Assembly: GCA_023245195.1 (NCBI GenBank)
Contig: JAHFKU010000003.1
Location: forward strand, 1-43,914
DNA from: Candidatus Staskawiczbacteria bacterium
Lineage (GTDB): Bacteria > Patescibacteriota > Minisyncoccia > Minisyncoccales > Staskawiczbacteraceae
Length of the DNA stretch: 43,914 nt
Direction of reading: 5' to 3'
The position numbers and the translations under genes are program-made. The notes beneath the pieces were generated by a model. That model saw nothing but the letters and a program-made list of their open reading frames with translations, did no database searches and was not told the origin of the DNA. Every line of letters begins with the position of its first letter. Within the stretch, counting starts at the first letter, position 1. Positions 7,046-41,285 of the stretch are shown piece after piece.

Positions 7046-8056
7046 ATGTCAAGTATTTTACATAAAACTCCTGATGCCCAAGATCAAATCCTCGATTCTT
7101 CGTTAAGGCCGAAAAATTGGGCTGATTATGTTGGCCAAGAAAAAATCAAGGAAAATATCCAGATTATTTTAATGGCCGCCAAAAAGCGCGGTCAATCCCC
7201 CGACCACTTGCTGCTCTATGGCAATTCTGGATTAGGAAAAACCACCCTGGCCCAACTAGTGGCCCTGGAAATGGGCAAAAAAATCCGTATCACTTCGGGC
7301 CCAGCCATAGAAAGAGCTGGGGATCTGGCCGCCATTTTGACTAATCTACAAGAAGGAGATGTGCTATTTTTAGATGAAATCCACAGGATGCACAAAACCA
7401 TTGAAGAATATATTTATCCAGCCATGGAAGACTATAAATTAAACTTGATATTGGGCAAAGGGCCGATGGCTCGAACCATGGAATTACACTTGCCTCGCTT
7501 TACCTTAATTGGAGCCACCACCAGGCCCGGACTACTATCTACCCCACTAAGAAATCGCTTTGGCGGCACCTTCCAGTTGAATTTTTACAAACCCGAAGAC
7601 ATTGAAAAAATTATTGAACGATCAGCTCGGCTTTTGGGAATATCTATCCACCCTGATGCGGTGCAAATTATCGCCAAGCGATCGCGATTTACTCCGCGGG
7701 TAGCCAATCGCCTCTTAAAAAGAGTCAGAGATTTTGCCCAAGTAAAAAATCAAGGCGTAGTAACTAAAGAAATCGCAAAACTTGCCTTAGAATCTTTAGA
7801 AGTTGATCACCAAGGACTTGAACCAGGCGATATTAAAATTTTATTGGCCTTAATTGAAAAATTTGACGGCGGACCAGTAGGGCTTCAATCGCTAGCCGCG
7901 GCCGCCCTTGAAGAAGAAGACACTATTTTGGACATGTACGAACCTTATTTAATGCAACTGGGATTTTTAGAAAGAACGCCCAAGGGCCGCGTGGCTTCAA
8001 AACTGGCCTACGAACATTTGGGATTGAAATACAATAAAACAAATAACCTAATTTGA
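7046..8056 (+). CDS. ruvB: Holliday junction branch migration ATPase RuvB
   Basis: SLRPK, GNSGLGKTTLA, ITSGPAIER, LFLDEIHR, FTLIGATTR, YEPYLMQLG. Confidence 0.98.
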   Translation: MSSILHKTPDAQDQILDSSLRPKNWADYVGQEKIKENIQIILMAAKKRGQSPDHLLLYGNSGLGKTTLAQLVALEMGKKIRITSGPAIERAGDLAAILTNLQEGDVLFLDEIHRMHKTIEEYIYPAMEDYKLNLILGKGPMARTMELHLPRFTLIGATTRPGLLSTPLRNRFGGTFQLNFYKPEDIEKIIERSARLLGISIHPDAVQIIAKRSRFTPRVANRLLKRVRDFAQVKNQGVVTKEIAKLALESLEVDHQGLEPGDIKILLALIEKFDGGPVGLQSLAAAALEEEDTILDMYEPYLMQLGFLERTPKGRVASKLAYEHLGLKYNKTNNLI

Positions 8057-8206
8057 AATTTACAATTTACAATTTGAAATCAATTCCTGCCTGCCGGCAG
8101 GCAGGTGAAAAGAATATGAATTTGAAATGATTAAAACCGTCAAAATTTCGCTTTGTCGAAATTTTGACACTTACTTTTTCAAATTTAAAATTTCAAATTT
8201 CAAATT
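8050..8206. repeat. 7-nt-periodic fold-back element between ruvB and yebC with nested palindromes
   Basis: Left arm (aatttga/aatttac)n, right arm (ttcaaat)n; nested cctgcctgccggcaggcagg 8086-8105 and gtcaaaatttcg..cgaaattttgac 8139-8168. Confidence 0.85.
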
Positions 8207-8213
8207 CACTATT

Positions 8214-8930
8214 ATGTCAGGACATAGTCACTTTAAAACCGTCGCGGCCACTAAAAACGCCAACGACGCTAAAAAAGGAAAAATATTTTCTAAAATGGCT
8301 CGAGTCATTACGATTGCCGTAAAAGACAAGGGGCCAGATATTTCAAGCAACATCCAACTAAAAGCTGCCATAGAAAAAGCCAAAGAGTTTAACATGCCCA
8401 AAGAAAATATTGAACGGGCAATTAAAAAGGGTACCGGAGAATTAGCCGGGGAATCTTTGGAAGAAGTGGCTTTTGAAGGGTTTGGCCCCGGAGGCATCGC
8501 CCTTATCATGGAAGGCATTACCGATAACAAAAACCGGACTCTTGGCGAAATAAAGGGAATTTTAGGGCAATACGATGGCAAGATAGCCGGAGAAGGAGCG
8601 GTGCGATGGATGTTTGAAAGAAAGGGGTTTTTGGTAATACCATCTGAAGGAAAATCAAAAGAAGACTGGGAAATGACGGTGATTGAAATCGGGGGCGACG
8701 ATATTAGATGGACCCAAGAAACTACTGAAATTTACACCAAACCCGAAGATTTTGAAGCGGTCAAAAAAGCTGCAAAGGAACGTGGCATAATAATTGACCA
8801 TGCTGCCCTAAGCTGGATTCCAAAAGAAGAAATTTCTATTAACGAAAAAGACATTGAAAAAGCTAAAAAATTATTTGAAGCTTTGGATGAAAACGATGCC
8901 GTTCAGGATGTTTACTCGAATTTGAAATAG
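8214..8930 (+). CDS. yebC: YebC/PmpR family protein (start corrected to ATG 8214)
   Basis: MSGHS start, NMPKENIERAIKKG, EGFGPGG, TDNKNRT, DAVQDVYSN. Confidence 0.95.
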   Translation: MSGHSHFKTVAATKNANDAKKGKIFSKMARVITIAVKDKGPDISSNIQLKAAIEKAKEFNMPKENIERAIKKGTGELAGESLEEVAFEGFGPGGIALIMEGITDNKNRTLGEIKGILGQYDGKIAGEGAVRWMFERKGFLVIPSEGKSKEDWEMTVIEIGGDDIRWTQETTEIYTKPEDFEAVKKAAKERGIIIDHAALSWIPKEEISINEKDIEKAKKLFEALDENDAVQDVYSNLK

Positions 8931-9021
8931 TTGAAGGTTTAAAGTTTAAAGTTTTAGTTTAAAGTTTCTAGTTGACTTTAAGCTAATAACTAAAACCAAT
9001 AACTTAAAACTAGAAACTATT
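8926..9021. repeat. 7-nt-periodic fold-back element between yebC and ruvC
   Basis: (aaagttt)n left arm, (aaaact/gaaact)n right arm; basal stem aatagtt/aactatt includes the TAG and ends at the ATG. Confidence 0.8.
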
Positions 9022-9537
9022 ATGATTATTTTAGGCATTGACCCAGGAACAGCTCTGGTAGGCTATGCGATTATTTCAACTAAAAAACCAAAGGGCCAAA
9101 AACAAGACCGAAACGAAAAACCCAAGGTTTTGGATTTTGGCTGCATTACCACCAGCAAATCATCTTTAATGGGCAGAAGGCTGGAAATAATATACGACCA
9201 GGTTTGCCTATTAATTAAAAAACACCAACCAGACGTAGTTTCAATTGAAAATCTTTTTTTCTTTAAAAACCTAAAAACCGTCATGCCCGTCAGCCAGGCC
9301 AGGGGAGTTATTTTGCTGGCGGCGGCAAAAAGCAATGTTCCTGTTTTGGAATTTACCCCCCTGCAAATGAAAATGACAATTGTGGGATATGGCAAAGCTG
9401 AAAAAAAACAGGTTCAAGAAATGACAAAACAACTTCTAGATTTAAGTGGTTTTGATTTAAAAGAAAAAGACCGGAAAAAAGATGACGCTTTTGATGCGCT
9501 AGGCATAGCGCTTTGCGCTTTTTTGAAGCCTACTTAA
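9022..9537 (+). CDS. ruvC: Holliday junction resolvase RuvC
   Basis: ILGIDPG, VSIENLFF, QARGVI, GYGKAEKKQV, DDAFDALGIA. Confidence 0.97.
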   Translation: MIILGIDPGTALVGYAIISTKKPKGQKQDRNEKPKVLDFGCITTSKSSLMGRRLEIIYDQVCLLIKKHQPDVVSIENLFFFKNLKTVMPVSQARGVILLAAAKSNVPVLEFTPLQMKMTIVGYGKAEKKQVQEMTKQLLDLSGFDLKEKDRKKDDAFDALGIALCAFLKPT

Positions 9538-9570
9538 AGAGGTTTTTATAGCCTGTGGAGAGGGAAAAGC

Positions 9571-9598
9571 TTGACAATAGTGCGTGAAAAAATATAAT
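9571..9598 (+). promoter_or_regulatory. Consensus sigma70 promoter
   Basis: TTGACA-N16-TATAAT. Confidence 0.8.
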
Positions 9599-9612
9599 AG
9601 GGAAAGATAAAA

Positions 9613-9757
9613 TAATTTACAATTTGAAATTTACAATTTGAAATCAATTTAAAAATATTACAATTTGAAATACTAAAATACGTTGCCTTTTCAAATTAAA
9701 ATATTGTAAGATTTAGTATTGAATTCAAATTTCAAATTACAAATTTAAAATTCAAAA
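9613..9757. repeat. 7-nt-periodic fold-back element in the 5' leader of the acidic ORF
   Basis: aatttacaatttgaaatttacaatttgaaatcaat...ttcaaatttcaaattacaaatttaaaatt; same subfamily as 8050..8206. Confidence 0.85.
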
Positions 9758-9758
9758 C

Positions 9759-9923
9759 ATGGAGGATGATTTTTTAAACATCTTAAATCAGTCTGACGAT
9801 TTAGACGATGACACTATGGACGACGATGAAGACGAAGAAGAAGATGACGAAAAAAAGGTTGACGACGAAGAAGATCTTGACGATGACGAAGAAGAGTTAA
9901 GTATGGCAGACGACGAAGAATAG
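9759..9923 (+). CDS. 54-aa highly acidic small protein
   Basis: MEDDFLNILNQSDDLDDDTMDDDEDEEEDDEKKVDDEEDLDDDEEELSMADDEE*; 34 of 54 residues D/E; flanked by promoter and terminator. Confidence 0.8.
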   Translation: MEDDFLNILNQSDDLDDDTMDDDEDEEEDDEKKVDDEEDLDDDEEELSMADDEE

Positions 9924-9953
9924 CTAGATATTTAATATAAAACATACCGCAAC

Positions 9954-9983
9954 CCAAAAACCAGCCCTCAAGCTGGTTTTTGG
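9954..9983 (+). terminator. Rho-independent terminator
   Basis: ccaaaaaccagc-cctcaa-gctggtttttgg. Confidence 0.75.
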
Positions 9984-10048
9984 TTTGTTGGAAAAAAGAG
10001 TCGTATTGATTTTTAATAAAAATGTTGTAGAATACGCGTATTACTGTG

Positions 10049-10207
10049 GACCTCTTGCAAAATAAGGCTTTACTGCAAATAAAGCCTTTGGACGAAAAAT
10101 ACGCAATAATTTTTTAGCTTACCGCAGAGGGTAAACTAAAAAATTCTATCGTATTTTTCGTCTGCAAAGTCTGTATTTTCGCACGAAGCCTAATTTTGCA
10201 AGAGGTC
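10049..10207. repeat. 159-bp fold-back/MITE-like element directly upstream of the PBP gene
   Basis: 15-bp terminal inverted repeats gacctcttgcaaaat/attttgcaagaggtc; internal arms gacgaaaaatacg/cgtatttttcgtc and aattttttag/ctaaaaaatt. Confidence 0.8.
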
Positions 10208-10209
10208 TT

Positions 10210-12420
10210 ATGAAACACTTTTTAGATTCGGTTAAAAAAATCCTAAAAAAGATAAAAAATTACGACAACAAGTGGGGTGTCGCCAAAACCATCGGCAAAT
10301 ATGTATTGTTTGCCTTTTTGGCTTTCTGTATTTTTATACTATTTCTCTTTTTTTACTATACCTACGACTTGCCCCGACCCGAAAAATTCGGCGAAAGCCC
10401 CATTATTCAGTCAACCAAAATTTATGATCGAACCGGAAAAGTGCTTTTGTATGACATTTACGGAGAAGAAAAAAGAGAGATTGTTTCTTTTGACAAAATT
10501 TCAGACAATTTAAAACATGCTGTTTTGGCATCTGAAGACGCCAGGTTTTACCAGCATGGCGGCATAGACTTTGAATCAATTATGCGGTCCATCCTCATTG
10601 ATTTAAAACTGCAATCAGCAAGCCAGGGAGCCTCCACTATTACCCAGCAATTAATTAGATCAGTCTATTTAACCAACCAAAAAACACTGTCCCGAAAGAT
10701 ACGGGAAATTGTATTGAGCATAGAATTAGAAAGAAGGTATTCCAAAGACCAAATTTTCAATTGGTACTTAAATCAAATACCCTTTGGCAAAAATGCTTAT
10801 GGCGCCGAAGCGGCAACGCAAACGTATTTTAACAAACCAGCTTCTGACTTATCGTTGGCAGAAGCTGCGGTTTTAACTGCTCTAATTCCCGCCCCAAGTT
10901 ATTATTCGCCCTATGGTTCCCACAAAGACCAGCTTTTGCAAAAAAAGAACTATATTTTGGAGCGAGAAAAACAACTTGGGTATATTAATCAAACACAATT
11001 AAAAGAAGCCAAAGATGAGATTTTGAATTTTGCCACCATCACTTCTCCCATAAAAGCTCCCCACTTTGTTATGTATGTCCAGCAATATTTGGAAGACCAA
11101 TATGGAGATGAGTTTTTAAAACAAAAGGGGTTAAAAGTGTATACCAGCCTTGATTGGGACCTACAAGATTATGCCGAGCAAGTGGTTAAGGATGCTGATA
11201 AAACAAATTTGAAATTTAAAGCCAACAACACCGCCCTGGTGGTTATTGATCCAAAAACCGGCGAAATTTTATCGCTTATTGGTTCAAAAGATTATTTTGG
11301 AACATCGTATCCAAAAGGGTGCGACCAGAAAGCCAGTGGCAGTTGTCTATTTGACCCGCAATACGACGTGGCCACTATTGGTCAGCGCCAACCAGGATCT
11401 TCTTTTAAGCCGTTTGTGTATGCGACCGCATTTAAAAAGGGGTATACTCCCAGCACCCTGGTGTGGGATGTAAAAACAGAATTTAATCCAAATTGCAGTA
11501 TGGATGGCAACCAAGAAAAAGACCAATACGGCTTAAAGTGTTATCACCCCCAAGATTATGATGGCAGATACCGGGGAATTATTTCTCTAAGAAATGCGCT
11601 CGACCAATCACTTAACATACCCGCCGTACAAGTCCTATACTTAGCTGGGTTGCGCGACAGCATCCAAACCGCCCACGAGATGGGAATTACCACCTTAAAT
11701 GATCCTGATAGCTATGGATTGTCTTTGGTGCTTGGCGGGGGCGAAGTAAACCTACTCGATATGACATCGGCTTATGGAGTTTTTGCAACCGAGGGCCAAA
11801 AAATACCTCCCGTAAGTATTTTAAAAATAGAAGACAGCCAAGGCAACATTATTGAAGAAAACAAAAGACAATCCACCAAGGTGCTCGACACTCAGGTAGC
11901 GCGACAAATAAATAACGTATTATCAGACAACAATGCCAGAGCCCCAATATTTGGCGTAAACAACCCACTGCATTTTGACAAATATCAGGTTGCCGCTAAA
12001 ACGGGTACCACTCAATATTTTAACGATGGTTGGACGATGGGATACACCCCATTTGCCTCCCTTGGAGTATGGGTTGGAAATAACGATAACTCTTCAACCA
12101 CCAACGAAGGCATTGGCCTGGCCGCTCCTATTTGGCACAAGGTGATGCAAAAATTACTAGAAACACATCCGGCAGAAAATTTTACGCCACCAAGCTTAGT
12201 AGAAAATCTAAACCCTATTTTACTAGGCCAATTACCAGCTGATCCTGCGCCCCACAGCATTTTATACTACATCGATAAAAACAATCCACTAAACACCTCG
12301 TATCCAAATCCCAACACCGACCCGATGTATCCTTTTTGGGAAGCCGCTGTGCAAAATTACACCAACTACACAAACCCCACAACACCCCCAGCAACGCCTC
12401 CAGCAAACCCCACACCCTAA
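10210..12420 (+). CDS. Class A penicillin-binding protein (PBP1A family, transglycosylase/transpeptidase)
   Basis: EDARFYQHGG, GASTITQQL, RKIRE, SSFK (SxxK), SLN, KTGT. Confidence 0.96.
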   Translation: MKHFLDSVKKILKKIKNYDNKWGVAKTIGKYVLFAFLAFCIFILFLFFYYTYDLPRPEKFGESPIIQSTKIYDRTGKVLLYDIYGEEKREIVSFDKISDNLKHAVLASEDARFYQHGGIDFESIMRSILIDLKLQSASQGASTITQQLIRSVYLTNQKTLSRKIREIVLSIELERRYSKDQIFNWYLNQIPFGKNAYGAEAATQTYFNKPASDLSLAEAAVLTALIPAPSYYSPYGSHKDQLLQKKNYILEREKQLGYINQTQLKEAKDEILNFATITSPIKAPHFVMYVQQYLEDQYGDEFLKQKGLKVYTSLDWDLQDYAEQVVKDADKTNLKFKANNTALVVIDPKTGEILSLIGSKDYFGTSYPKGCDQKASGSCLFDPQYDVATIGQRQPGSSFKPFVYATAFKKGYTPSTLVWDVKTEFNPNCSMDGNQEKDQYGLKCYHPQDYDGRYRGIISLRNALDQSLNIPAVQVLYLAGLRDSIQTAHEMGITTLNDPDSYGLSLVLGGGEVNLLDMTSAYGVFATEGQKIPPVSILKIEDSQGNIIEENKRQSTKVLDTQVARQINNVLSDNNARAPIFGVNNPLHFDKYQVAAKTGTTQYFNDGWTMGYTPFASLGVWVGNNDNSSTTNEGIGLAAPIWHKVMQKLLETHPAENFTPPSLVENLNPILLGQLPADPAPHSILYYIDKNNPLNTSYPNPNTDPMYPFWEAAVQNYTNYTNPTTPPATPPANPTP

Positions 12421-12421
12421 A

Positions 12422-12469
12422 GTTCAACAAAAAAACCACAAACATATGTTTGTGGTTTTTTTGTTGAAC
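12422..12469. terminator. 48-bp perfect palindrome, probable bidirectional terminator between convergent PBP and dnaN
   Basis: gttcaacaaaaaaaccacaaacat|atgtttgtggtttttttgttgaac. Confidence 0.7.
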
Positions 12470-12483
12470 AAAGTATTGCAATA

Positions 12484-13620
12484 CTACATTGATTTGATCG
12501 GCATCACCACATAAATATAACTAGAATCTCCCACGGGCTTTAAAATACACGGACCCTCTTCTTTACTAATATCAAAAATTATTTCAGAGCTTTTAATATT
12601 TAACAACCCATCTATAAGGTATTTATAATTAAAAGAAACGTCTATTGAATCTCCTTCCACTTTAACGGGCAAACTTGACCTATTTTCTCCCACATCGCCA
12701 CTTTTAGCAAAAACTTCAATTTCTTGTTTTTCTTTGTTTATTGAAATTTTCACCTCATTAACCTTGCCAGAAAAGAGTGATGCGGTTTTGATTTGATTTA
12801 AAAATTCGTCTTTTTTCAACACCACATGGGTTTTAAATTTGGTAGGAATAATATCCTGGTAATTAGGATATTCTCCCTCAATTAAACGAGATGTAATCTG
12901 CACCTGGGGATGCGCCGCCTCTTTCATGGGAAGCTCAAATAACACCTGATTGGATGAAAAATAAATCCTCATCAAACCCTCTTTGTTTTCTAAAATATTC
13001 ATAACTTCCCTAGCCGATTTTTGAGGCAAGATAAAAGAATAGTCTTTTTCTTTTATGTTTTTTAACGGTTCTTCCAAGTGGATATTTTTTTCTCCCAGCC
13101 TAAAACTATCGGTGGCTACCATTTTAATTGCATTTTTAGAAAAAGAAAAGTAAACACCGGAAATTTCAGGCCTTGATTGGGAGGTTGAAGCAATGTCAAT
13201 GATTTGAGCCAATCCCATGCAAAGCTTTTTACTATCTAATTCTATGTATTCAGCATTTTTAAATTCCGGTATTATGGGAAAATCCTCTGAACTATATCCC
13301 TGGATTTGGGTTTTAATATTCTTGCATTCAATATATAGATTCTGGTCTTTTACCTCCATGGTGATTTTTTCATTCGGTAAAGAAGAAATAAAGGCTGATA
13401 AAAACTTGGCTGGAACAACGATATTTCCATTTTTAATAATCTTAACTAATATCCATAATTTAATCGCTATTTCTAGGTCAGTAGAAACTAAACTTAAAAA
13501 ATTATTATCAGTGGTTATTAATACATTATTTAAAATTGGCAGTGATAAATTTTTCCCCACAATCCGTTCAGTAATATTAAGATTTGTTTTTAAATTTTCT
13601 TTTAACACTTCTATTTTCAT
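12484..13620 (-). CDS. dnaN: DNA polymerase III beta clamp (start likely ATG 13620)
   Basis: LPILNNVL, STDLEI, VATDSFRL, SRLIEGEYPNY, YVVMPI; downstream of dnaA. Confidence 0.97.
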   Translation of the reverse strand: MKIEVLKENLKTNLNITERIVGKNLSLPILNNVLITTDNNFLSLVSTDLEIAIKLWILVKIIKNGNIVVPAKFLSAFISSLPNEKITMEVKDQNLYIECKNIKTQIQGYSSEDFPIIPEFKNAEYIELDSKKLCMGLAQIIDIASTSQSRPEISGVYFSFSKNAIKMVATDSFRLGEKNIHLEEPLKNIKEKDYSFILPQKSAREVMNILENKEGLMRIYFSSNQVLFELPMKEAAHPQVQITSRLIEGEYPNYQDIIPTKFKTHVVLKKDEFLNQIKTASLFSGKVNEVKISINKEKQEIEVFAKSGDVGENRSSLPVKVEGDSIDVSFNYKYLIDGLLNIKSSEIIFDISKEEGPCILKPVGDSSYIYVVMPIKSM

Positions 13621-13639
13621 AAGCGATATTGTTAGCAAT

Positions 13640-13845
13640 TAAATTAATTTTTAAATAATATGTTTATAGTTGTTAGTGGATGCGTCTTTCTGATTTTTTT
13701 AAATATGGGTATGTTATTTTAACTATAAATTAATAATAAATAACCTGTTGATAAGTGGGTGGGAAAAACCTGAGGATAAAACGGATAAATTTTTTGTATA
13801 ATTTTTTAAATCAAATATTACCAGTTTTTCACGCACTTATCCACT
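13640..13845. other. Putative oriC part between dnaA and dnaN (AT-rich DNA plus DnaA-box-like nonamers)
   Basis: tgttgataa 13746-13754, tgaggataa 13771-13779, ttatccact 13837-13845 and an AT-rich stretch. Confidence 0.7.
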
Positions 13846-15204: not shown

Positions 15205-15382
15205 AATAATGAGATTTTGCGCAATTACGCCAAAATTGGCACAAGGTCACGCCGAAACTTTATAATAATTAAAATACTCTGAATCACGAAACTCTTTTGT
15301 AGTTCAGAATAACTATATAAAAAATATCAAGCTTATTAATGAGAGTCAAATAAGTATAAAATAAGGTCAATTGTTAATAAAG

Positions 15383-15391
15383 TGTGGATAA
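15383..15391 (-). promoter_or_regulatory. Perfect DnaA box upstream of dnaA
   Basis: tgtggataa, reverse complement TTATCCACA. Confidence 0.8.
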
Positions 15392-15433
15392 GGTGTGTTT
15401 TGGGTTAAACCTTAGACGCACAATAATGTTAAA

Positions 15434-15462
15434 TTGACCAATGCGTTCTTTTATACTATACT
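15434..15462 (+). promoter_or_regulatory. sigma70 promoter for the rpmH operon
   Basis: TTGACC-N17-TATACT. Confidence 0.65.
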
Positions 15463-15562
15463 AACCATAATATATTAACCTAGAAAATTATACAACTTTA
15501 CATCGCAAAATTCCTGAAACCCGTTTTTATTGAGTATTTTGCGATTTAAAGTTTACAAATAC

Positions 15563-15697
15563 ATGAGCTTTACTTATAAGCCAAAAAAGAAAAAAAGGAA
15601 AAGAACCCATGGTTTTTTGGTTCGCATGCAGACCAAAAAGGGCAAGCAGGTTATCCAAAGGAGAAGAGCCAAAGGAAGAAAGAAGCTCTCAGTATAG
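15563..15697 (+). CDS. rpmH: 50S ribosomal protein L34 (below ORF-track cutoff)
   Basis: [44 protein letters not shown]; canonical position. Confidence 0.98.
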
Positions 15698-15702
15698 TTA
15701 TT

Positions 15703-15821
15703 AATTTTCAATTTCTAATTTTCAATTTTCATTAAATTTTTAATACACTAATTTTCAAATACGTTTAGAAATTAAAGCAATTAGATATTTAATAGAAATT
15801 AGAAATTATGAATTAGAAATT
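15703..15821 (+). repeat. Empty 7-nt-periodic fold-back element (four-helix-bundle subfamily) between rpmH and rnpA
   Basis: (aattttc/aatttct)n-attaaat..aaa tacg ttt..atttaat-(agaaatt)n; near-identical to the reverse complement of 36526..36657. Confidence 0.9.
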
Positions 15822-15829
15822 CAGGGAAG

Positions 15830-16168: not shown

Positions 16169-16332
16169 GGAGTAATCACGAATATACTAATACGTTCAAA
16201 TATACCAATCTTACAAATATACGAATACGAGATTGCTTTTGCGCCTGCGGGCGCCTCGCAATGACGGCGGCAAGATTTGTATATTTGTAAAATTCGTATA
16301 TTATCGTAAATTTGTATATTCGCGACTACTCC
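16169..16332. repeat. 8-9-nt-periodic fold-back element between rnpA and yidC with a nested AGATTGC..GCAATGAC repeat
   Basis: Basal stem ggagtaatcacgaatata/tatattcgcgactactcc; acgaatat/acaaatat units versus atttgtat/attcgtat; nested repeat 16230-16266. Confidence 0.85.
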
Positions 16333-16338
16333 AATTAA

Positions 16339-17519: not shown

Positions 17520-17526
17520 TTTTTTG

Positions 17527-17644: not shown

Positions 17645-17660
17645 AATAATTATGAAATCC

Positions 17661-17694
17661 ATCCCAAATTACTACGATCGTAGTAATTTGGGAT
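17661..17694. repeat. 34-bp perfect palindrome
   Basis: atcccaaattactacga|tcgtagtaatttgggat. Confidence 0.92.
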
Positions 17695-22501: not shown

Positions 22502-22527
22502 GCCGCGCGCCCCGCGGGGCGCGCGGC
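22502..22527. repeat. GC palindrome centred on CCCG|CGGG
   Basis: gccgcgcgccccg|cggggcgcgcggc. Confidence 0.9.
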
Positions 22528-24348: not shown

Positions 24349-24816
24349 AATTTCTAATTTTCAATTTCTAATTTCTATTAAATGTATAATTTCTAATTTT
24401 CAAAAACTTTCTTGGCATCAATAGTATTAGTAATTTTTTGGAATATAAGATGAAATTCATGAGCTTCCTGCCAAAGATTTCTTATAGGCTCTTTTAGTTC
24501 TGTGTTATTTTTAGCTAACATTCTTAACCAATATTTTGTCTCATTCGCCTCTTTCTTTGAAATATATATTTTATTTCTAAAGTCCTTTTTAGAACTTGAA
24601 GCGTTTGCTTCGTAGTAATTTGCACCAACAGACGTGGCAGCTCTCGTCAATTGGATAATAATATTTCTATTAATATCATCCCTTTTTATATTTTTAACAA
24701 ATTCTATGATATTCTCGGCAAAGACTGCGGATCTTTCTTCTAGGTCGTAAGCTTTTTTGTTTTGAAATTGGTTCATTTAAAATTTAATAGAAATTAGAAA
24801 TTAGAAATTGAAAATT
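24349..24816 (-). mobile_element. Candidate cassette: four-helix-bundle gene enclosed by inverted 7-nt-periodic arms
   Basis: Arms 24349-24407 (aatttct/aattttc)n and 24759-24816 (agaaatt)n overlap the stop and start of the gene. Mobility is inferred. Confidence 0.6.
24393..24776 (-). CDS. Four helix bundle protein (23S rRNA intervening-sequence protein/Avd-like family)
   Basis: YDLEER, QLTRAATSVGANYYEA, SKKDF, ISKKEANETKYWL. Confidence 0.93.
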   Translation of the reverse strand: MNQFQNKKAYDLEERSAVFAENIIEFVKNIKRDDINRNIIIQLTRAATSVGANYYEANASSSKKDFRNKIYISKKEANETKYWLRMLAKNNTELKEPIRNLWQEAHEFHLIFQKITNTIDAKKVFEN

Positions 24817-25503: not shown

Positions 25504-25748
25504 AACGAATTAACACAAATATGTTTAACGAATCAACACGAATCACGAATTACGCTTTTTGTATCAAGGGTATCCCACTTTTTCTAAACTCTTCCTCTAA
25601 AGCTTTTTGATAAATTTGCTCTTTTAGTCCCCTGCCGTATTTGTTAAACACATTATAAACTGCTCCCTGAATTTTATAAGAAAGCTCTGCTTCTAAAAAG
25701 TTTTTATTCGTGATTCGTGTTGATTCGTACATTGTGTGGAAATTCGTT
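25504..25748 (-). repeat. Inverted periodic arms enclosing the GxxExxY remnant
   Basis: 23-bp perfect inverted pair acgaatcaacacgaatcacgaat 25528-25550 / 25706-25728 with imperfect outward extension. Confidence 0.9.
25550..25732 (-). pseudogene. Truncated GxxExxY protein
   Basis: ELSYKIQGAVYNVFNKYGRGLKEQIYQKALEEEF carries G-x-x-E-x-x-Y; only 60 aa, and the PD-(D/E)xK-like C-terminal half is missing. Confidence 0.85.
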
Positions 25749-25750
25749 AT

Positions 25751-26440: not shown

Positions 26441-26446
26441 AAAGAC

Positions 26447-31595: not shown

Positions 31596-31702
31596 AATTT
31601 GAAATTTACAATTTGAAATTTGAAATCAATTTGAAATGTGTAAATTTGAAATTTGAAAAATTTGAGACTGTTTCTGTCCCGCGCGCCCGCGGGCGCGGGG
31701 GA
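31596..31702. repeat. Single 7-nt-periodic arm (aatttga)n plus CCCG|CGGG palindrome
   Basis: aatttgaaatttacaatttgaaatttgaaatcaatttga...; tccc[g]cgcgcccg|cgggcgcg[g]ggga 31677-31702. Confidence 0.85.
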
Positions 31703-33477: not shown

Positions 33478-33578
33478 AGTTAAACTCTAAACCCAAAACT
33501 CTAAATCCTAAACAAATCCAAAATTCTAAATACCAAATCACAAACACGTTTAGATAGAGTTTAGGATTTAGAATTTCT
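33478..33578. repeat. 7-nt-periodic fold-back element upstream of rsmA
   Basis: (ctaaatc/caaaact)n versus (tttagga/tttagaa)n. Confidence 0.75.
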
Positions 33579-36525: not shown

Positions 36526-36657
36526 GAATTTCTAATTCTTAATTTCTAATTTCTATTAAATATCTAATCGCTTTAATTTCCAAACACCATGGTTTTAGAA
36601 ATTAGCAGGATTAAAAATTTAATGAAAATTGAAAATTAGAAATTGAAAATTTAATAA
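36526..36657 (-). repeat. Empty 7-nt-periodic fold-back element (four-helix-bundle subfamily) upstream of rny
   Basis: Reverse complement aligns closely with 15698..15822. Confidence 0.9.
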
Positions 36658-36770: not shown

Positions 36771-37355
36771 TTACTTGGCTCCGGTTATGACTTCATCAAT
36801 TAAGCCGTATTTTTGGGCTTCCAAAGCGGTCATATAAAAATCCCGGTCGGTATCTTTTTCAACCATGCTCATTGACTGGCCGGTGTGGCTAGCCAAAATC
36901 TCGTTGATCTTACCTTTGATTTTTATAATCTGCTTGGCAGTAATTTCAATGTCTGCGGCTTGCCCTTGCATGCCGCCGGCAACTTGGTGGAGCATGATTT
37001 CGGCGTTGGGCAAAGCAAAACGCTTGCCTTTGGTGCCACAAGCCAAAATAACCGCTCCCATCGAAGCTGCCAGGCCGATGCAAATGGTAGAAACCGGGCA
37101 TTTAATAAACTGCATGGTGTCATAGATAGCCAGTCCCGCTGTAACCGAACCTCCAGGGCTGTTAATATAAAGCTTTATGTCTCTTTTTGGGTCTTTTGAG
37201 ACCAAGTACAGCATTTGGGCAATTACCACATTAGCATTCATATCGGTAACCGGCCCAGCCAAAAAGATAATACGCTCTTCTAAAAGCCTAGAAAATATGT
37301 CATATACGCGCTCACCGCGTTGTGATTTTTCGATAATCGTTGGTACGATAGGCAC
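36771..37355 (-). CDS. clpP: ATP-dependent Clp protease proteolytic subunit (start likely GTG 37355)
   Basis: [35 protein letters not shown]. Confidence 0.98.
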
Positions 37356-37360
37356 AATTG

Positions 37361-37465
37361 TTAATTCAAAATGCAAATATCAAACTGCAAAATAACAGTT
37401 TAAAATTTAAAATATCGCGAAGCGATAACAAAATTTTGAATTTTGATCTTTTAATTTTACATTTA
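37361..37465. repeat. 7-nt-periodic fold-back element between tig and clpP
   Basis: (tcaaaat/gcaaaat)n versus (attttga)n with a central tatcgcgaagcgata hairpin. Confidence 0.75.
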
Positions 37466-38731
37466 ACGAGATAAATTTTCTAGAAACTGGAAAATTTTCT
37501 CGTTAAATATCGCTCCTTTACTATACTCCGTTAATTGGTTGATGTCAATTTGTTTTAGTTGGTCCTGGGTGTAATTTTTCATCAATTTTTGTAGATCTTT
37601 TGCTATTTCTTCTGGAGTTACCTCAATGTGTTCTGCTTTCCCGATTTCGCGCAGCACCAAAAAGTTTTTGATCCTTTTTTCAGCCTCCAATTTATAGGTG
37701 TTTTTAATCTCTTCTTCGGTTTTATTGACCGAAGCCAGATATTTTTCAAACGACATGTTGAATTGATTGTTGACTTGCACTTTTAAATCTTCCAGTAATC
37801 GCTCTTTTTCAAATTCCACCATTTTTTCAGGAATATCAAAGGTAATTTGCATGGAAATTTTTTCTAACACCTCACCGCGTGTTCGTTGCTTTTCTGATTC
37901 TTGTTTTTCCAGGGTAATTCCCTCTTTTAAATTTTCTTTCAATGCCACCAAGCTATCAAAAGCACCTAGGCTCTTGGCAAATTCATCGTTAATTTCGGCC
38001 AGTTCCATTTTTTGAACCGAAAGCATTTTTACCTTAAATAAGGCTGGTTTTCCGGCCAAATCTTTGCGCGGCATATTCTCCGGGAACTTGGCCGTAAATT
38101 CTTTTTGGTCGCCGGCTTTCATGCCAATAACATTTTCTTCAAAGTCTTTTAAAAACCCGCCCTGGCCTAAAATAAACCGGTCTTTTACGGTTTTGTTATC
38201 ATTGATTGCTTCGTTGGAATATTCAATTTCTACAAAATCCTTATCTTGCGCTGGCCGATTTTCAGTCGTAAATTTAGCCCGAGATTTTTGCAGATAATCT
38301 ATCGTGTCTTGAATTTCTTTTTCATCCACCGAAATTTCTTTGCCTTTTATATGGCTGGCGATTTCTTTATAATTAGGCAGTTTTATTTCCGGTAACACGG
38401 AAACTGTTACGGTAAATAAAAATTCGTTTCCTTTAGCAATTTTTTTAATTTGGACTTCGGGGTCGCCAATCGGTTCTAATTTTTGTTCTTCCACAAACTT
38501 TGGATAGGTTGCCTTAACTGCCAAGTCACCCGCTTCCATAAGCAATTCTTCAGGTTTTATCTTTTCTTCCACCATTTTTAACGGCACTTGGCCCTTGCGA
38601 AATCCATCTATTTTGACATGTTCCTTCAATGCCAAAAGCGCCTTGTCAAAATATTTGCCAAATTCTTCAGCCGTCAACTCGAATTCTATTTCTATTTGTG
38701 ATTGGGGTAATTTTTTAATTTCGGTTTTCAT
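37463..38731 (-). CDS. tig: Trigger factor
   Basis: IDGFRKGQVP signature, FKBP-like core; upstream of clpP. Confidence 0.96.
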   Translation of the reverse strand: MKTEIKKLPQSQIEIEFELTAEEFGKYFDKALLALKEHVKIDGFRKGQVPLKMVEEKIKPEELLMEAGDLAVKATYPKFVEEQKLEPIGDPEVQIKKIAKGNEFLFTVTVSVLPEIKLPNYKEIASHIKGKEISVDEKEIQDTIDYLQKSRAKFTTENRPAQDKDFVEIEYSNEAINDNKTVKDRFILGQGGFLKDFEENVIGMKAGDQKEFTAKFPENMPRKDLAGKPALFKVKMLSVQKMELAEINDEFAKSLGAFDSLVALKENLKEGITLEKQESEKQRTRGEVLEKISMQITFDIPEKMVEFEKERLLEDLKVQVNNQFNMSFEKYLASVNKTEEEIKNTYKLEAEKRIKNFLVLREIGKAEHIEVTPEEIAKDLQKLMKNYTQDQLKQIDINQLTEYSKGAIFNEKIFQFLENLSR

Positions 38732-39150
38732 TTACCTGAAAAATATTTTTGTAGAGCGATAAAACCGTCATTTCCTTTATCAAATTTTTGGAAATTATTT
38801 TGATCTGCCCACTCAAATTTATTATGTTCTTCGCTTAGTTTTAAATCTCCTGAAATATATTTAGTACGAAAAAGTATAATATACACTTTCTTTCCGTACA
38901 AGGGGTGAGTTTTTTTAGAAATTTCAAAAAACCAAACAGCAAAAGGATTTTTAACTTCAATCTCAAAGCCTGTTTCTTCTCTAACCTCCCGTTTTAAAGA
39001 AAGTTCTAGGTCACCAGGTTTTTGAATTTCATCTTCTTGAATTTTTCCACCAGGAAAATCCAATCCAAATATTGGATCAAAAACTATAAGTACCTTTCCG
39101 TCCTTTTCAATTAGTGCTTTTTGTCCGACGTAAAATAGTGCTTCCTCCAT
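38728..39150 (-). CDS. NUDIX hydrolase
   Basis: PGGK..LKREVREETG, LSEEH..W. Confidence 0.9.
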   Translation of the reverse strand: MEEALFYVGQKALIEKDGKVLIVFDPIFGLDFPGGKIQEDEIQKPGDLELSLKREVREETGFEIEVKNPFAVWFFEISKKTHPLYGKKVYIILFRTKYISGDLKLSEEHNKFEWADQNNFQKFDKGNDGFIALQKYFSGK

Positions 39151-39153
39151 AAA

Positions 39154-41139
39154 TTACACTAAGAAAGCAACGATCAAGAGAGCCACGATGTTGAGTACCT
39201 TAATCATTGGGTTAATTGCTGGGCCGGCGGTGTCTTTGTATGGGTCTCCAACGGTGTCGCCAGTTACAGCGGCTTGGTGGGCAAATGATCCTTTTCCGCC
39301 GAATGCGCCTCCTTCAATATATTTTTTAGCATTGTCCCAAGCGGCGCCTCCGGTGGTCATGGAAATTCCTACAAAGAGTCCCGTAACCGTGGCTCCAATT
39401 AACAATCCCCCCAGTGCCTCTACTCCCAAAAATACGCCTACCAAAATCGGTGCAGCCACCGGAATTAAGGCCGGGATCATCATTTCTTTAATGGCGGCTT
39501 TGGTTACAATGTCCACGCATTTTCCGTATTCTGGTTTGGCCGTGCCTTCCATTAAACCTTTAATTTCTTTAAATTGTCTTCGAACTTCTTCAACCACTTT
39601 GCCGGCGGTTTTTCCAACCGCGCCCATTAAAAAGCTGGCAAATAAATATGGTAATAGGCCTCCAATCAAAAGACCGGCAATCACTCTTGGATTTGATAAA
39701 TCAAAAATGGCATGAGAGCCTAATCGATTAGTAATTTCTTGGGTGTAGGCAGAAAATAATACTAGGGCCGCCAATCCCGCTGAAGCAATAGCATAACCTT
39801 TGGTAACGGCTTTGGTGGTATTTCCCACGGCGTCTAATTCATCGGTAATTTTTCTAACTTCCGGAGCCATGCCCGACATTTCGGCAATTCCGCCGGCGTT
39901 ATCGGTAATCGGGCCATAGGCATCAACTCCAACCACAATGCCTCCAATAGAAAGCATAGAAACCACCGCTAGCGCTACTCCATAAATTCCGGCCAGCCAA
40001 AAGCTTGCAATAGTACCGGCAGCGATTAACAGTACCGGAAGGGCGGTTGATTGCATGCCAATTCCCAAACCGCGGATAATATTGGTTCCATGACCCGTTT
40101 CAGAAGCCTTAGCAATGGATTTTACGGGGCTCCATTTTTTGTCGGTGTAGTATTCGGTAATAACAAACATTAAAGCGGCAACTGCTAAGCCGATTAGGCA
40201 TGACAAAAAGAGATTATCGGTTGGCACGATTTGCCCAGCCATCATTTTTGAAATGACAAAATAAAAGACAACGGCTGATAAAATAATGGAAGCCGCCACG
40301 CCTTTATACATGGCTCCCATGATTGATTTGTTGGCGCCCAATTTTACAAAAAAGCTCCCAATAATAGAAGTTAGCATAGAAACGCTTCCCAGCATCAGCG
40401 GAAGTAAAACAAACTTGTCTGAATTTGGGTACAAAAGGGCCCCGAGGATCATGGTGGCAACCATGGTGACTGAATAGGTTTCAAAAATATCGGCGGCCAT
40501 GCCAGCGCAGTCTCCCACGTTGTCGCCCACTTGGTCGGCAATCACTCCTGGGTTTCGAGGATCATCTTCAGGAATATTCTTTTCAATTTTTCCGACCATG
40601 TCGGTTCCCACATCAGCAGCTTTGGTGTAAATTCCGCCGCCAACCCTGGCAAAAACCGAAATTAAGCTGGCGCCAAAGCCCAAGCCAATAAGTCCTTCAA
40701 TTCCGGTGGTATAATAATATCCCGATACGGCCAAAAGCCCGAGCGACACCACTAAGAGTCCAGTAACTAATCCGCCTTTAAATGATAAATCTAGGCCTTG
40801 TGCCAAGCCTCGTTTTGAGGCTTCGGCAACTCGGGTATTGGTTTGAGTGGAAACTAACATGCCGATAAATCCTGAAACTCCCGATAATACTGCTCCGATT
40901 AAAAACCCAATCGCAATTTTCCAGCCCAAAAACAGTAGCCCGACAAAGATAATAATTGCAACGATGCTGACAGTTTTATACTGTCTTTTTAAAAAAGACA
41001 TGGCGCCTTCTTTTATGGCTTCAGTGATAGCAATGGCTTTGTCTTTTGCCGCCGGAGCTTTGTTAATTTTTGAAATTAAAAAAAACACAAACGCAACGGT
41101 AAAGAGCGAAACGATGATGGGATAAAAGATGATAGACAT
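39154..41139 (-). CDS. hppA: Membrane-bound pyrophosphatase (likely K+-independent H+-PPase)
   Basis: [40 protein letters not shown]. Confidence 0.96.
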
Positions 41140-41143
41140 GACT

Positions 41144-41285
41144 AATTTGAAATTTGAAATTTAAAATTTAAAATCAATCCGCGGCACCCGCGGGTGCCGC
41201 GGATGAATAATTCGAAATGATTAAAAATCTGAAATTGCAAACTCGGCTTTTATTTTATAAATTTAAAACTAAATATCTAATTTTG
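41144..41285. repeat. 7-nt-periodic element with nested 28-bp CCCG|CGGG palindrome upstream of hppA
   Basis: aatttgaaatttgaaatttaaaatttaaaatca-atccgcggcacccg|cgggtgccgcggat(41177-41204)-gaataattcgaaatgattaaaa. Confidence 0.85.

Follow-up and report, generated by a model that had tools for sequence, protein, structure and literature searches.

Twelve periodic fold-back elements of differing sequence lie between genes along a single stretch of a Candidatus Staskawiczbacteria genome, and several of them appear to join the stop codon of one gene to the start codon of the next at the base of a stem. Does this geometry serve to keep neighboring genes translationally coupled, or does it follow from the way in which such elements insert and fold? 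The stretch analyzed here (the window) comprises 43,914 nt (positions 1 to 43,914 of the forward strand of contig JAHFKU010000003.1, assembly GCA_023245195.1), and the genome scanned amounts to 787 kb. The host is a very small groundwater bacterium. Genes and start codons were called with our own crude caller, so that all codon-to-stem distances given below carry some error.

All 12 elements that a sequence-only reading had listed in the window were fold-backs with inverted, 7–9-nt periodic arms, and Tandem Repeats Finder recovered the named units at the places given (Table 1). Each element consists of two inverted arms of tandem 7–9-nt A/T-rich units and a variable loop, which holds a GC-rich palindrome in some copies and a small gene in fuller ones. 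Stem length ranges from 19 to 57 bp.

Table 1. Fold-back elements and a related palindrome in the window (MFE, minimum free energy).
Element	Positions	Strand	Location	Fold, arms and loop	Neighboring codons
F1 (AATTTGA-family) fold-back	8050..8206	+	ruvB-yebC gap	MFE −44, z −5.3; GC-rich hairpin and second hairpin in loop	ruvB TGA (8054–8056) within first unit; yebC ATG (8214) 7 nt past stem
AAAGTTT-type fold-back	8926..9021	+	yebC-ruvC gap	MFE −25.2, z −3.7 (fold of 8922–9027)	see text
F1-like fold-back	9614..9752	+		z −3.2	touches start only; 6 nt upstream of ATG (9759) of 54-aa acidic ORF; 76 nt past ruvC stop
F2 (AATTTCT/AATTTTC-family) fold-back	15703..15821	+	rpmH-rnpA gap	stem weak at 37°C (15692–15835: z −1.7; 12/200 shuffles equally good)	starts 5 nt past rpmH TAG (15695–15697); ends 8 nt upstream of rnpA GTG (15830)
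F3 (ACGAATAT-family, 8-nt units) fold-back	16169..16332	+	rnpA-yidC gap	MFE −62.3, z −7.7; termini 5′ GGAGTAATCAC..., 3′ ...GACTACTCC; GC hairpin in loop	see text
Stand-alone 26-nt GC palindrome	22502..22527	.		identical to F1 loop hairpin	4 nt past TraG-like gene stop; ∼23 nt upstream of next ATG
F2-family fold-back with cargo	24349..24816	−		arms 24349–24383 / 24782–24816, 31/35 complementary; 127-aa PF05635 (23S rRNA intervening-sequence protein) ORF (24393–24776)	5 nt past stop of gene 24822–25496; 7 nt upstream of TraG-like ATG (24341)
ACGAAT-type fold-back	25504..25750	−		inner arms 25528–25550 / 25706–25728, 23/23 complementary; gapped outer arms (reaching 25504 and 25750) read by eye; encloses 60-aa PDDEXK_3 gene fragment (25550–25732)	between stop of gene 25751–26140 and ATG 25496 (7 nt away) of gene 24822–25496
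F1-type heptamer hairpin (31596–31653) and GC-rich hairpin	31596..31700	−			start only; 6 nt upstream of GTG (31589) of gene 29610–31589; no stop codon nearby
CTAAATC/CTAAACT-type fold-back	33482..33576	−	divergent spacer	z −6.5	start only; 7 nt upstream of ksgA-like ATG (33474)
F2-family fold-back	36527..36651	−		z −4.4	start only; 7 nt upstream of RNase Y ATG (36519); ∼120 nt, with terminator-like hairpins, to clpP stop
TCAAAAT-type fold-back	37363..37442	−	tig-clpP gap	stem weak at 37°C (37350–37470: z −1.7; 10/200 shuffles equally good)	starts 20 nt past tig TAA; ends 7 nt upstream of GTG 37355, which aligns with relatives' clpP start
F1-family element	41144..41276	−	fills gap between gene 41277–42797 (stop) and H+-pyrophosphatase	z −4.6; second arm degenerate; GC hairpin in loop	heptamer arm adjoins H+-pyrophosphatase ATG (41139)

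The sequence-only reading had proposed that the stem base joins stop to start across these elements. A start codon indeed lay within 10 nt of the element end in all 12, but both codons were close in only six. An element was taken as closed when the stop fell within the stem or preceded it by ≤8 nt and the start followed it by ≤8 nt. By this cut-off, the elements at 8050, 8926, 15703, 16169 and 24349 were closed at both ends, as was the one at 25504 provided that the gapped outer arms are included. The stems at 37361 and 41144 were 20 and ∼32 nt away from the stop, and the elements listed at 9613, 31596, 33478 and 36526 approached a start alone. Two placements described in detail agreed with the predicted folds: the stem of 8926–9021 includes the yebC TAG (8928–8930, paired) and its last base directly precedes the ruvC ATG (9022), and that of 16169–16332 begins directly past the rnpA TAG and stops 6 nt short of the yidC ATG (16339; fold of 16160–16344). 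The idea that folding restores stop-start proximity also held, as the predicted folds of the window junctions and of 36 occupied junctions from this genome and its relatives bring both codons together, with the outer helix ≤8 nt from the stop in 28 and ≤9 nt from the start in 22 of the 36. Stop and next start come to lie side by side because each element folds back on itself.

Genome-wide, 71 periodic elements separate co-directional genes, and 31 of them were closed at both ends, compared to 16 of 138 non-periodic inverted repeats; most of these 16 represent the outer stems of elements from the same families. The excess of codon proximity over chance was only modest once slack was considered: in junctions with 30–400 nt of slack, elements were near the start in 11 of 41 cases (6.4 expected under uniform placement, p = 0.04) and near the stop in 10 of 39 (6.4 expected, p = 0.09). 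Tight junctions were occupied in 32 of 175 cases, though each offers only a few nucleotides. Of 32 closed elements, 20 had a stop that overlapped the stem and 17 had a start 5–7 nt away, the spacing between stem end and start having its mode at 6–7 nt. The closed geometry is largely a consequence of arms that are paired right up to their ends and of insertion into gaps of 0–10 nt.

The families are dispersed throughout the genome. With a self-match threshold of ≥85%, period 7 was dominant (54 tracts) and period 14, twice 7, accounted for 25 tracts, while the remaining periods yielded 1 (period 4), 0 (5), 0 (6), 2 (8), 13 (9), 3 (10), 0 (11), 3 (12) and 1 (13). Merging gave 90 periodic elements summing to 12.9 kb, with ∼16–20 copies each of F1, F2 and F3 in the 787 kb, and genomes of the genus had between 0 and 56 F1 matches each. 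No transposase or other mobilizing enzyme was found tied to the arms, the element flanks showed no target-site duplication, and the sole Y1-transposase-like gene has its own hairpins at its flanks, unrelated to the elements. Long inverted ends made of a variable number of short tandem repeats, around a variable and sometimes coding center, are also a hallmark of the Foldback (FB) transposons of Drosophila, which are eukaryotic and much larger than the elements described here. Dispersed intergenic tandem heptamers occur as STRR repeats in filamentous cyanobacteria, with unit sequences that differ from ours; we know of no description of STRR repeats as stop-to-start bridges.

Comparison with relatives revealed insertion polymorphism. 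At five orthologous junctions (∼22 genomes of the genus), the genes were closely spaced or overlapped (ATGA, TAATG) in some genomes and were separated in others by inserts of 55–400 nt from many different families, so that spacers were bimodal (≤20 or ≥55 nt; 19–24 genomes per junction). Between yebC and ruvC, for example, 6 of 19 genomes carry an insert of 58–136 nt and the other 13 have 2–19 nt, with TAATG or ATGA found in relatives without an insert. More generally, the genes of these pairs run into each other or are almost contiguous in element-free relatives, with spacers between −17 and +20 nt. Overlapping or touching pairs of this kind are the usual layout of coupled genes (PMC12548453), and the tight ancestral pairs therefore identify the elements as insertions into coupling junctions. 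The scarcity of Shine–Dalgarno (SD) motifs, to which the sequence-only reading had tied preserved coupling, was borne out: GGAG, GAGG or AGGA stands at −18 to −4 in 75 of 625 ATG genes, a control window gave 25 of 625, and none of the 32 closed junctions had such a motif. When mapped onto a species tree of concatenated proteins (11 of 21 branches starred; 17–23 genomes per junction), the five junctions required 5, 6, 4, 3 and 6 state changes, for a total of at least 24 gains or losses. Seven genomes (G006, G008, G009, G011, G012, G017 and G035) have none of the five junctions occupied and retain the same genes, which makes the elements dispensable.

An F1 copy is also present in the 23S rRNA of this genome, at position ∼1218 of 2925 of the Rfam model, the classical intervening-sequence site. 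It is common to the close relative G002, and six other genomes have ∼20–26 nt there. The three PF05635 genes and two PDDEXK_3 genes that the genome encodes are all situated within or beside periodic arms. Genus-wide, inverted arms, mostly of 7-nt period, surround 20 of 30 PF05635 genes, compared to 6 of 203 control genes. The elements thereby resemble the 23S intervening sequences of Coxiella burnetii, Leptospira and Salmonella, in which inverted repeats at the termini pair into a long stem, the loop may carry an S23p/PF05635 ORF (ORF-less forms exist too) and occurrence among relatives is patchy (PMC4990558). The rRNA copy occupies the same site, ∼1.2 kb into the 23S, a distance that agrees with helix 45, for which fragments of 1.2 and 1.7 kb have been reported (PMC4990558). 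In contrast to those sequences, copies here lie mostly at mRNA junctions, their arms are built of tandem 7–9-nt units, and a single genome holds dozens of copies from many families. They also share with MITEs and palindromic repeats such as Correia, ERIC and Chunjie that they are short, non-coding, multi-copy, hairpin-forming and co-transcribed with operons (PMC10969869), but the parent insertion sequence, target duplication and defined inverted-repeat ends of bacterial MITEs were not found here. The terms 'translational coupling', 'stop codon' and 'start codon' are absent from that review.

Based on the 23S copy and the PF05635 genes in loops, the elements probably form a selfish fold-back superfamily of the intervening-sequence type, with a geometry that mainly makes the insert tolerable and did not evolve as a coupling device. 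Fuller copies carry as cargo a gene for a small PF05635 four-helix-bundle or PDDEXK_3 nuclease-like protein. Turnover would be rapid, with elements coming and going and one family replacing another at the same site, and copies would persist where the transcript tolerates a self-sealing insert, i.e. at the tip of a 23S rRNA hairpin or in a stop-start gap of a few nucleotides.

A less likely, though possible, explanation is that the elements are processing sites, at which RNase III would cut the long A/U stems and split the operon RNA. Coupling would then be lost, and the downstream gene would be translated alone from a short, unstructured A/U-rich leader, the freed 3′ arm. Intervening sequences with 28-bp terminal stems, within the range of stem lengths seen here, are cut mid-stem by RNase III (PMC4990558), as are Correia elements in mRNAs at their inverted repeats (PMC10969869). 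Since F1 occupies the classical 23S site and RNase III is encoded in this genome, cutting of operon RNA is as possible as coupling. However, several stems are weak, with many mismatches, and cutting alone leaves the stop within the stem base unexplained; to our knowledge, moreover, excision is not known for all rRNA insertions of CPR bacteria.

The stronger proposal of the sequence-only reading, an adaptive coupling device or tunable switch selected for stop-start joining, whose slippable 7-nt register sets the strength of downstream expression, seems unlikely. In its favor, the same five junctions are occupied repeatedly and by different families, and alternative registers are possible, a one-unit slip improving the unit-order fit in six of eight full F1 copies by our own reading. 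Between rpmH and rnpA, 8 of the 10 occupied junctions have GTG or TTG as the rnpA start codon and all 13 empty ones have ATG, a trend that points the same way in ∼4.5 of 5 independent contrasts (sign test, p = 0.06). Long hairpins that end just upstream of a start are known from unfolding-based coupling in phage f1 (VII/IX) and MS2 (coat/lysis), where they are opened only by ribosomes finishing the upstream gene; those hairpins lie within the upstream coding sequence of compact genomes, whereas the hairpins of this genome are dispensable insertions (PMC12548453). In one library screen, structure directly after the stop lowered coupling (PMC12548453). Against preserved coupling and the switch alike, the arms show neither compensatory evolution nor a sense-strand bias. 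The sense fold was favored in 17 and the antisense fold in 31 of 52 cases in this genome (p = 0.013, in the wrong direction) and in 17 versus 15 of 32 cases in relatives, and sense-orientation arm mismatches gave no wobble signature (G:U 36, A:C 53). Across 11 F1 copies, doubly changed pairs were not above shuffles (36 of 500 reached the observed number), and variable arm positions were mostly mispaired or unpaired and uncompensated. Elements also occur in divergent (7) and convergent (5) spacers and within reading frames, and the seven genomes without any occupied junction argue against the switch as well.

It is rather improbable that the tandem 7-nt units are primarily protein-binding arrays, with the hairpin secondary, that are recognized by a translational regulator or the element's own protein (candidates are S1, cold-shock proteins, CsrA-like proteins and the loop-borne PF05635 protein). 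Such binding has been proposed for the TAACTGA heptamer arrays just before starts in Beggiatoaceae (MacGregor 2015, PMC4679880). These direct repeats are intergenic in Beggiatoaceae, cyanobacteria and Bacteroidetes and, in ribosomal-protein operons, end ∼1 nt upstream of starts without ribosome-binding sites (PMC4679880). Our elements share with them tandem heptamers a few nucleotides upstream of starts, rare ribosome-binding sites, a location within ribosomal-protein operons, suspected mobile carriage and, because the unit carries stop triplets, a possible overlap with the upstream ORF end (PMC4679880). The constant start proximity in the window, which includes four elements without a nearby stop, the match between stem-start spacing and the GGAG-ATG spacing of this genome, and the link of PF05635 genes to periodic arms are all consistent with binding. 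Yet unit sequences differ so widely among families that no single binder fits, three PF05635 genes face dozens of unit types, and start proximity only modestly exceeds the tight-gap effect. Furthermore, TAACTGA arrays are direct, of one unit and without predicted structure (PMC4679880), whereas inverted pairs with a loop, many units and cargo genes are found here.

Local, immobile growth of microsatellites by polymerase slippage, to which bacterial heptamer over-representation has been attributed (PMC4692102), would fit the varying number and order of units and the native ruvB and yebC ends that already resemble the F1 unit, but is highly improbable as the sole origin given the conserved loop sequence and identical GC palindrome at unlinked sites, the presence of one family at many junctions and in rRNA, and copy numbers that leap from 0 to 56 between species.

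If the elements are selfish inserts of the intervening-sequence type, their tolerance at stop-start gaps could be explained as follows. Because the arms pair to the outermost bases, an insert of 60–170 nt forms a single stem whose ends meet. The upstream frame terminates within the first unit or shortly ahead of it, frequently at a stop triplet that belongs to the unit, and the next start follows ∼6–7 nt past the stem. A ribosome reaching the stop at the stem base would already have opened the lowest part of the stem, which may expose the A/U-rich 3′ arm and the short gap for ribosome landing. With no SD motif, initiation at the downstream gene would then continue to rely on translation of the upstream one, and the inserted element may in this way preserve translational coupling.

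The repeat units and inverted arms that the sequence-only reading had named at 12 places of the window were confirmed by Tandem Repeats Finder and by a repeat search, respectively. Across the source genome (787 kb in 41 contigs, ∼39% G+C; the window is contig C11, and the DNA runs containing its sequence are labelled groundwater metagenome, with no RNA run found among those listed for window positions 15400–17600), 54 tracts had a period of 7 nt, compared to 0–13 tracts for each other period from 4 to 13 nt and 25 for its multiple, 14 nt. An inverted-repeat search (arm length ≥18 nt, complementarity ≥78%, separation ≤700 nt) returned 366 pairs, 100 of which had arms periodic at 7–9 nt. Arms were 19–57 nt long and 72–100% complementary, with fold stability scores against shuffled sequences (z) between −1.7 and −7.7; two of the listed elements form weak stems at 37 °C (z −1.7). 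Merging yielded 90 periodic elements totalling 12.9 kb. BLAST of representatives placed family F1 (AATTTGA units, ∼165 nt), family F2 (AATTTCT/AATTTTC units, ∼100–125 nt) and family F3 (ACGAATAT, 8-nt units, 130–210 nt) at roughly 16–20 places each, and many unit types exist beyond these three. Within the genus, F1 matches ranged from 0 to 56 per genome.

Pfam identified ruvB, yebC, ruvC, a PBP gene, dnaN, dnaA, rpmH, rnpA, yidC, a Jag-like gene, a conjugation-like cluster, RNase Y, clpP, tig and an H+-pyrophosphatase gene in the window, which gave no Rfam match at the gathering score and no hit in an ARAGORN tRNA scan. Genes other than those checked by Pfam come from a crude custom ORF caller (818 genes, 84% coding), so that distances to start codons carry some error. 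As the earlier reading had stated, Shine–Dalgarno (SD)-like motifs are few: GGAG, GAGG or AGGA occurred at −18 to −4 of 75 out of 625 ATG genes, compared to 25 out of 625 in a control window. The genome-wide GGAG peak had its 3′ end 6–7 nt ahead of the ATG.

We then considered the geometry of the elements, for which it had been claimed that the stem base joins a stop codon to the next start codon. Both junctions described in full, yebC–ruvC and rnpA–yidC, folded exactly as stated (see table). For the 12 listed elements together the claim stood in part: each has a start codon no more than 10 nt from its end and six are closed at both ends, but two lie 20–32 nt from the stop and four touch the start only. 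Genome-wide, 53 periodic inverted repeats in co-directional spacers have a stop as well as a start at a distance of up to 40 nt. Using strict limits (stop at −26 to +12 nt, start at 0 to 15 nt), closure at both ends was seen for 31 of the 71 periodic repeats located between co-directional genes, compared to 16 of 138 non-periodic ones, and most of these 16 are non-periodic outer stems of F3 or of another hairpin element. Among 32 closed elements, the stop overlaps or lies inside the stem in 20 and the start follows 5–7 nt past the stem in 17; none of them shows GGAG, GAGG or AGGA in the gap or the adjoining 12 nt of the arm. Where the spacer left 30–400 nt of slack, proximity to starts exceeded uniform placement only modestly (11 of 41 near, 6.4 expected, p = 0.04); the corresponding figures for stops were 10 of 39 near and 6.4 expected (p = 0.09). 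Upstream of RNase Y, elements of several families end 5–8 nt before the ATG in this genome and about a dozen relatives, following a conserved terminator-like hairpin. The reported pattern is genuine and holds generally, in this genome as well as across the genus.

Occupancy per junction was 32/175 for tight co-directional gaps, 40/423 for other co-directional, 7/84 for divergent and 5/84 for convergent ones, rates that are rough because the ‘empty’ class still includes other repeat types. Since the tight gaps provide much less sequence to insert into, their use per nucleotide is strongly raised, through either site preference or survival. Arms that pair to their outermost bases, inserted into a gap of 0–10 nt, leave stop and start at the stem base. 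End-to-end arm pairing and the tiny target gap account for most of the stop–start pattern.

Locations of elements and other sequence features (C, contigs of the source genome; L, loci)
Feature	Location	Observation
Element at yebC–ruvC	window 8926–9021 (fold of 8922–9027)	yebC TAG within basal stem; ruvC ATG is the next base
Element at rnpA–yidC	window 16169–16332 (fold of 16160–16344)	Directly after rnpA TAG; 6 nt to yidC ATG; z −7.7
Elements touching the start only	window 9613, 31596, 33478, 36526	
Element with F2 arms	window 24349–24816	PF05635 ORF (24393–24776, E 3e-17) in loop, inside the arms
Element with gene fragment	window 25504–25750	PDDEXK_3 fragment in loop
rnpA start (rpmH–rnpA, L021–L043)	window 15830	
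F1 copy in 23S rRNA gene	C27:1288–1431	Loop of helix at Rfam LSU model positions 1210–1226 of 2925
23S rRNA gene	C27:1–3212 (L073)	Only model positions 1–2366 within 3212 nt
TAATCACATAAC.../...CATG family	C13:16860–16940	
TAATCACATAAC.../...CATG family	C28:1900–1990	
TAATCACATAAC.../...CATG family	C38:4020–4110	
TAATCACATAAC.../...CATG family	C32:103900–103980	
TAATCACATAAC.../...CATG family	C9:2490–2585	
TAATCACATAAC.../...CATG family	C1:5510–5600	
CATGAAA/CATGGAA single arrays	C8:42978–43009 and C19:4668–4705	In frame inside long ORFs
Box sequence		TTAGAAATT
GC-rich perfect palindrome	window 22502–22527	CCGCGG-type centre; one of 29 sites genome-wide
Nested inverted repeat	window 10049–10207	Just upstream of PBP gene (10210); outer arms 21/22 match; inner hairpin 10091–10162; a different, non-periodic hairpin element with a similar arm at C23:754–924
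Y1_Tnp-like gene	C32:68487–69239	Single copy
Hairpins bracketing that gene	C32:68452–69296	Three copies of one 20–25-nt hairpin; REP/RAYT-like arrangement
Toxin–antitoxin-like pair	window 26420–27351	DUF6922 with AbiEii
Toxin–antitoxin-like pair	window 31853–32462	Nucleotidyltransferase with HepT
Perfect palindrome, two copies	window 735–771 (37 nt) and 1324–1367 (44 nt)	Common 37-nt core; flank PaaX-like gene (773–1303) and resemble paired operator sites of that regulator
93-nt tandem repeat	window 19684–19911	2.4 copies, 82% identity, within 1405-aa pilin-domain gene (17764–21981)

Comparison with orthologous loci of relatives at five junctions (yebC–ruvC, rpmH–rnpA, rnpA–yidC, yidC–jag and tig–clpP; 19–24 genomes each) indicated that the elements are insertions into coupling junctions. 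In 13 of 19 genomes, only 2–19 nt separate the last aligned YebC codon from the ruvC ATG, with TAATG or ATGA overlaps, and six of 19 carry inserts of 58–136 nt belonging to at least four repeat types. Spacers were bimodal at all five junctions, being either tight (≤20 nt; 13, 11, 14, 16 and 7 genomes in the order listed) or occupied (≥55 nt; 5, 10, 6, 4 and 12 genomes). On a species tree of eight proteins (24 genomes, 11 of 21 inner branches starred), which we used instead of a poorly resolved YidC+Jag tree (1 of 20 branches starred), these states require 5, 6, 4, 3 and 6 changes, respectively, 24 in total. Four genomes (G014, G007, G000 and G003) have four or five of the five junctions occupied; seven (G006, G008, G009, G011, G012, G017 and G035) have none. 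At the same junction, the closest species carry different families. Minimum-energy folds of 36 occupied junctions placed the outermost helix ≤8 nt from the stop in 28 and ≤9 nt from the start in 22, with 17 junctions satisfying both limits. At several of the tig–clpP junctions, the last tig codons and the stop belong to a repeat unit, so that the reading frame enters the arm and terminates there. Contigs of four DNA runs, compared with window positions 7900–27800, broke at repeats and showed ‘joints’ that were further members of these families; neither an empty site nor an excision was readable in them. Several relatives encode a small secreted protein between ruvB and yebC (loci L003, L005, L008, L012, L014, L016, L017, L019 and L020); our genome is without this gene and has an F1 element alone there.

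A separate F1 copy lies in the 23S rRNA gene of this genome (none of the 12 window copies is in rRNA), and it is common to a close relative, G002; six other genomes have ∼20–26 nt there. As the site of an intervening sequence we required a hairpin tip of 23S rRNA helix 9, 25 or 45. We take the F1 site to be helix 45, because its position would split the rRNA into ∼1.2 and 1.7 kb. In Coxiella, the intervening sequence of helix 45 is described as leaving fragments of 1.2 and 1.7 kb (PMC4990558). The span covered by the LSU model implies a further ∼850 nt of insertions in the same 23S gene beyond the F1 copy, one of them long, from near model position 583. The complementary, long-stem termini of intervening sequences are also found in the elements, as arms of 19–57 nt. 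Two window elements carry cargo in their loops (see table), and the remaining PF05635 and PDDEXK_3 genes of the genome likewise lie between or adjoining periodic arms. Within the genus, inverted, mostly 7-nt-periodic arms of many unit types flank 20 of 30 PF05635 genes, compared to 6 of 203 size-matched control genes of our genome. The cargo genes, the association of PF05635 with arms and the F1 copy in 23S rRNA tie the elements to rRNA intervening sequences. We therefore read them as selfish, fast-turning-over fold-back inserts of the intervening-sequence type, with the stop–start geometry being mainly a condition for insert tolerance in an SD-poor, tightly packed genome.

Individual families differ in how they supply codons. 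F3 copies have the ends GGAGTAATCAC... and ...GTGATTACTCC; in five copies the element itself supplies the TAA that ends the upstream gene, with CTCC 3–7 nt ahead of the ATG. In the TAATCACATAAC.../...CATG family, the 5′ arm opens with TAA, giving the upstream stop, and the 3′ arm has an ATG every 7 nt and hence in all three frames, with the downstream gene starting at the last or second-last of them; the arms pair better antisense. The idea that heptamer units are generally built to offer a stop in every frame did not hold up, as only 6 of 32 5′ arms do so (2.1 expected from shuffles). Three-frame stops are a tendency that is clear only in some families, e.g. TAATCACATAAC.../...CATG. The ORFs that contain CATGAAA/CATGGAA arrays resemble, by eye, tsaD-like and nucleotidyltransferase-like genes, and by their in-frame position such arrays can be translated. 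We also dropped the F1 loop as a portable promoter (TTGACA-N16-TAAAAT by eye), since its orientation relative to genes is mixed (5 forward, 3 reverse). The CCGCGG-type palindromes occur within F1 loops or alone at gene junctions, in copies changed on both halves.

What the hairpins do to the RNA can be viewed in two opposite ways. They may keep upstream and downstream translation coupled, as the sequence-only reading had supposed. Coupling models invoke RNA unfolding or ribosome scanning, and the f1 VII/IX hairpin, an example of RNA-unfolding coupling, is a close parallel to the junction hairpins; in one screen, structure just after the stop lowered coupling (PMC12548453). Conversely, each hairpin may be an RNase III cut site, as is the case for rRNA and for Correia-bearing mRNAs (PMC10969869); a gene for RNase III is present in our genome. 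The arms themselves gave no RNA-level signal. Sense-strand wobble was not supported by the arm mismatches (36 G:U vs 53 A:C), and the sense strand folded better than the antisense in 17 and worse in 31 of 52 own elements, which is the wrong direction (p = 0.013); in relatives, the split was 17 vs 15 of 32 (p = 0.96). In an alignment of 11 F1 copies, pairing extended to 91.6% of cells, but the variable unit positions lacked a partner in 4–8 of the 11, and doubly changed pairs were not above shuffles (36 of 500 reached the observed value). Changes on both sides were seen only in the GC-rich loop hairpin of F1 (4 of 9 pairs, small numbers). Lacking a wobble, strand or covariation signal, the arms amount to near-perfect DNA palindromes that either are too young or slip too freely to bear an RNA signature. 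By eye, a slip of one unit improves the match in unit order for 6 of 8 full F1 copies.

Start codons differed with occupancy. At rpmH–rnpA, 8 of the 10 occupied junctions have GTG or TTG as the rnpA start, and all 13 empty ones have ATG (Fisher's exact test, 9e-5, kinship ignored). Independent contrasts on the eight-protein tree agreed with this association in ∼4.5 of 5 cases and opposed it in none (sign test, 0.06), five contrasts being too few for significance in the kinship-controlled test. The trend was weaker at tig–clpP (5 of 13 vs 1 of 10, hand count, clpP starts anchored on the conserved N-terminus).

A bolder reading starts from the spacing in this bacterium, which is largely free of SD motifs. 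A fold-back end 5–7 nt before the start equals the GGAG-to-ATG spacing; the upstream stop lies at that helix end too, on the other strand, and in F3 the end is GGAG paired to CTCC. In this reading, the stem base would replace the SD helix, and a ribosome terminating at the stop would pass over the closed hairpin to the start that follows, much as in ribosome shunting but in a bacterium. Efficiency of the transfer would be set by the 7-nt register, which can slip, and by the GTG/TTG shift at occupied junctions, and PF05635 proteins might read the heptamer arrays. We regard this reading as improbable.

The elements were also compared with other classes. Like MITEs, they are multi-copy and show presence/absence polymorphism at orthologous sites. 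A constant target duplication was found neither in the flanks of the 53 elements nor in those of 11 paired F3 copies, the element ends being blurred by the repeat structure; nor did we find a parent insertion sequence with matching ends and a transposase, Y1_Tnp being the one transposase family searched. ORFs inside arms comprised PF05635, PDDEXK_3 and ordinary genes only. RNA-active MITEs have been reviewed, and that review does not contain the terms ‘translational coupling’, ‘stop codon’ or ‘start codon’ (PMC10969869). TAACTGA-type arrays resemble the window's tandem heptamers, which also end a few nt before starts (12 of 12 within 10 nt), and the genome has no SD-like motif at any of the 32 closed junctions; those arrays, however, are direct repeats of one unit, whereas here many other units form inverted pairs. 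TAACTGA arrays are described within ribosomal-protein operons, where they end just before starts and lack ribosome-binding sites; because of their stop triplets, they can extend up to 18 nt into the upstream ORF (PMC4679880). A general excess of heptamer repeats has also been described (PMC4692102). The elements did not fit REP/BIME sequences with a RAYT, as the 20–25-nt hairpins flanking the Y1_Tnp-like gene are its own and unrelated to the heptamer families. Our literature search of main texts returned no paper describing elements of this kind, whether from Patescibacteria or in the role of stop-to-start bridges. Further parallels are the Foldback elements of Drosophila and the STRR repeats of cyanobacteria.

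The finding links three topics that have been treated separately and left unexplained in the literature: rRNA intervening sequences with their four-helix-bundle genes, the bacterial heptamer excess, and start-abutting heptamer arrays. It presents all three as one kind of self-sealing insert, able to live in the operons of a 0.8-Mb genome while essential gene pairs, e.g. in rpmH–rnpA–yidC, remain unbroken. If the hairpins keep coupling, or if instead each junction is a place where they cut the operon RNA, gene expression throughout Patescibacteria would be shaped by them, and they would provide a natural test bed for ribosomes meeting a stop–start hairpin.
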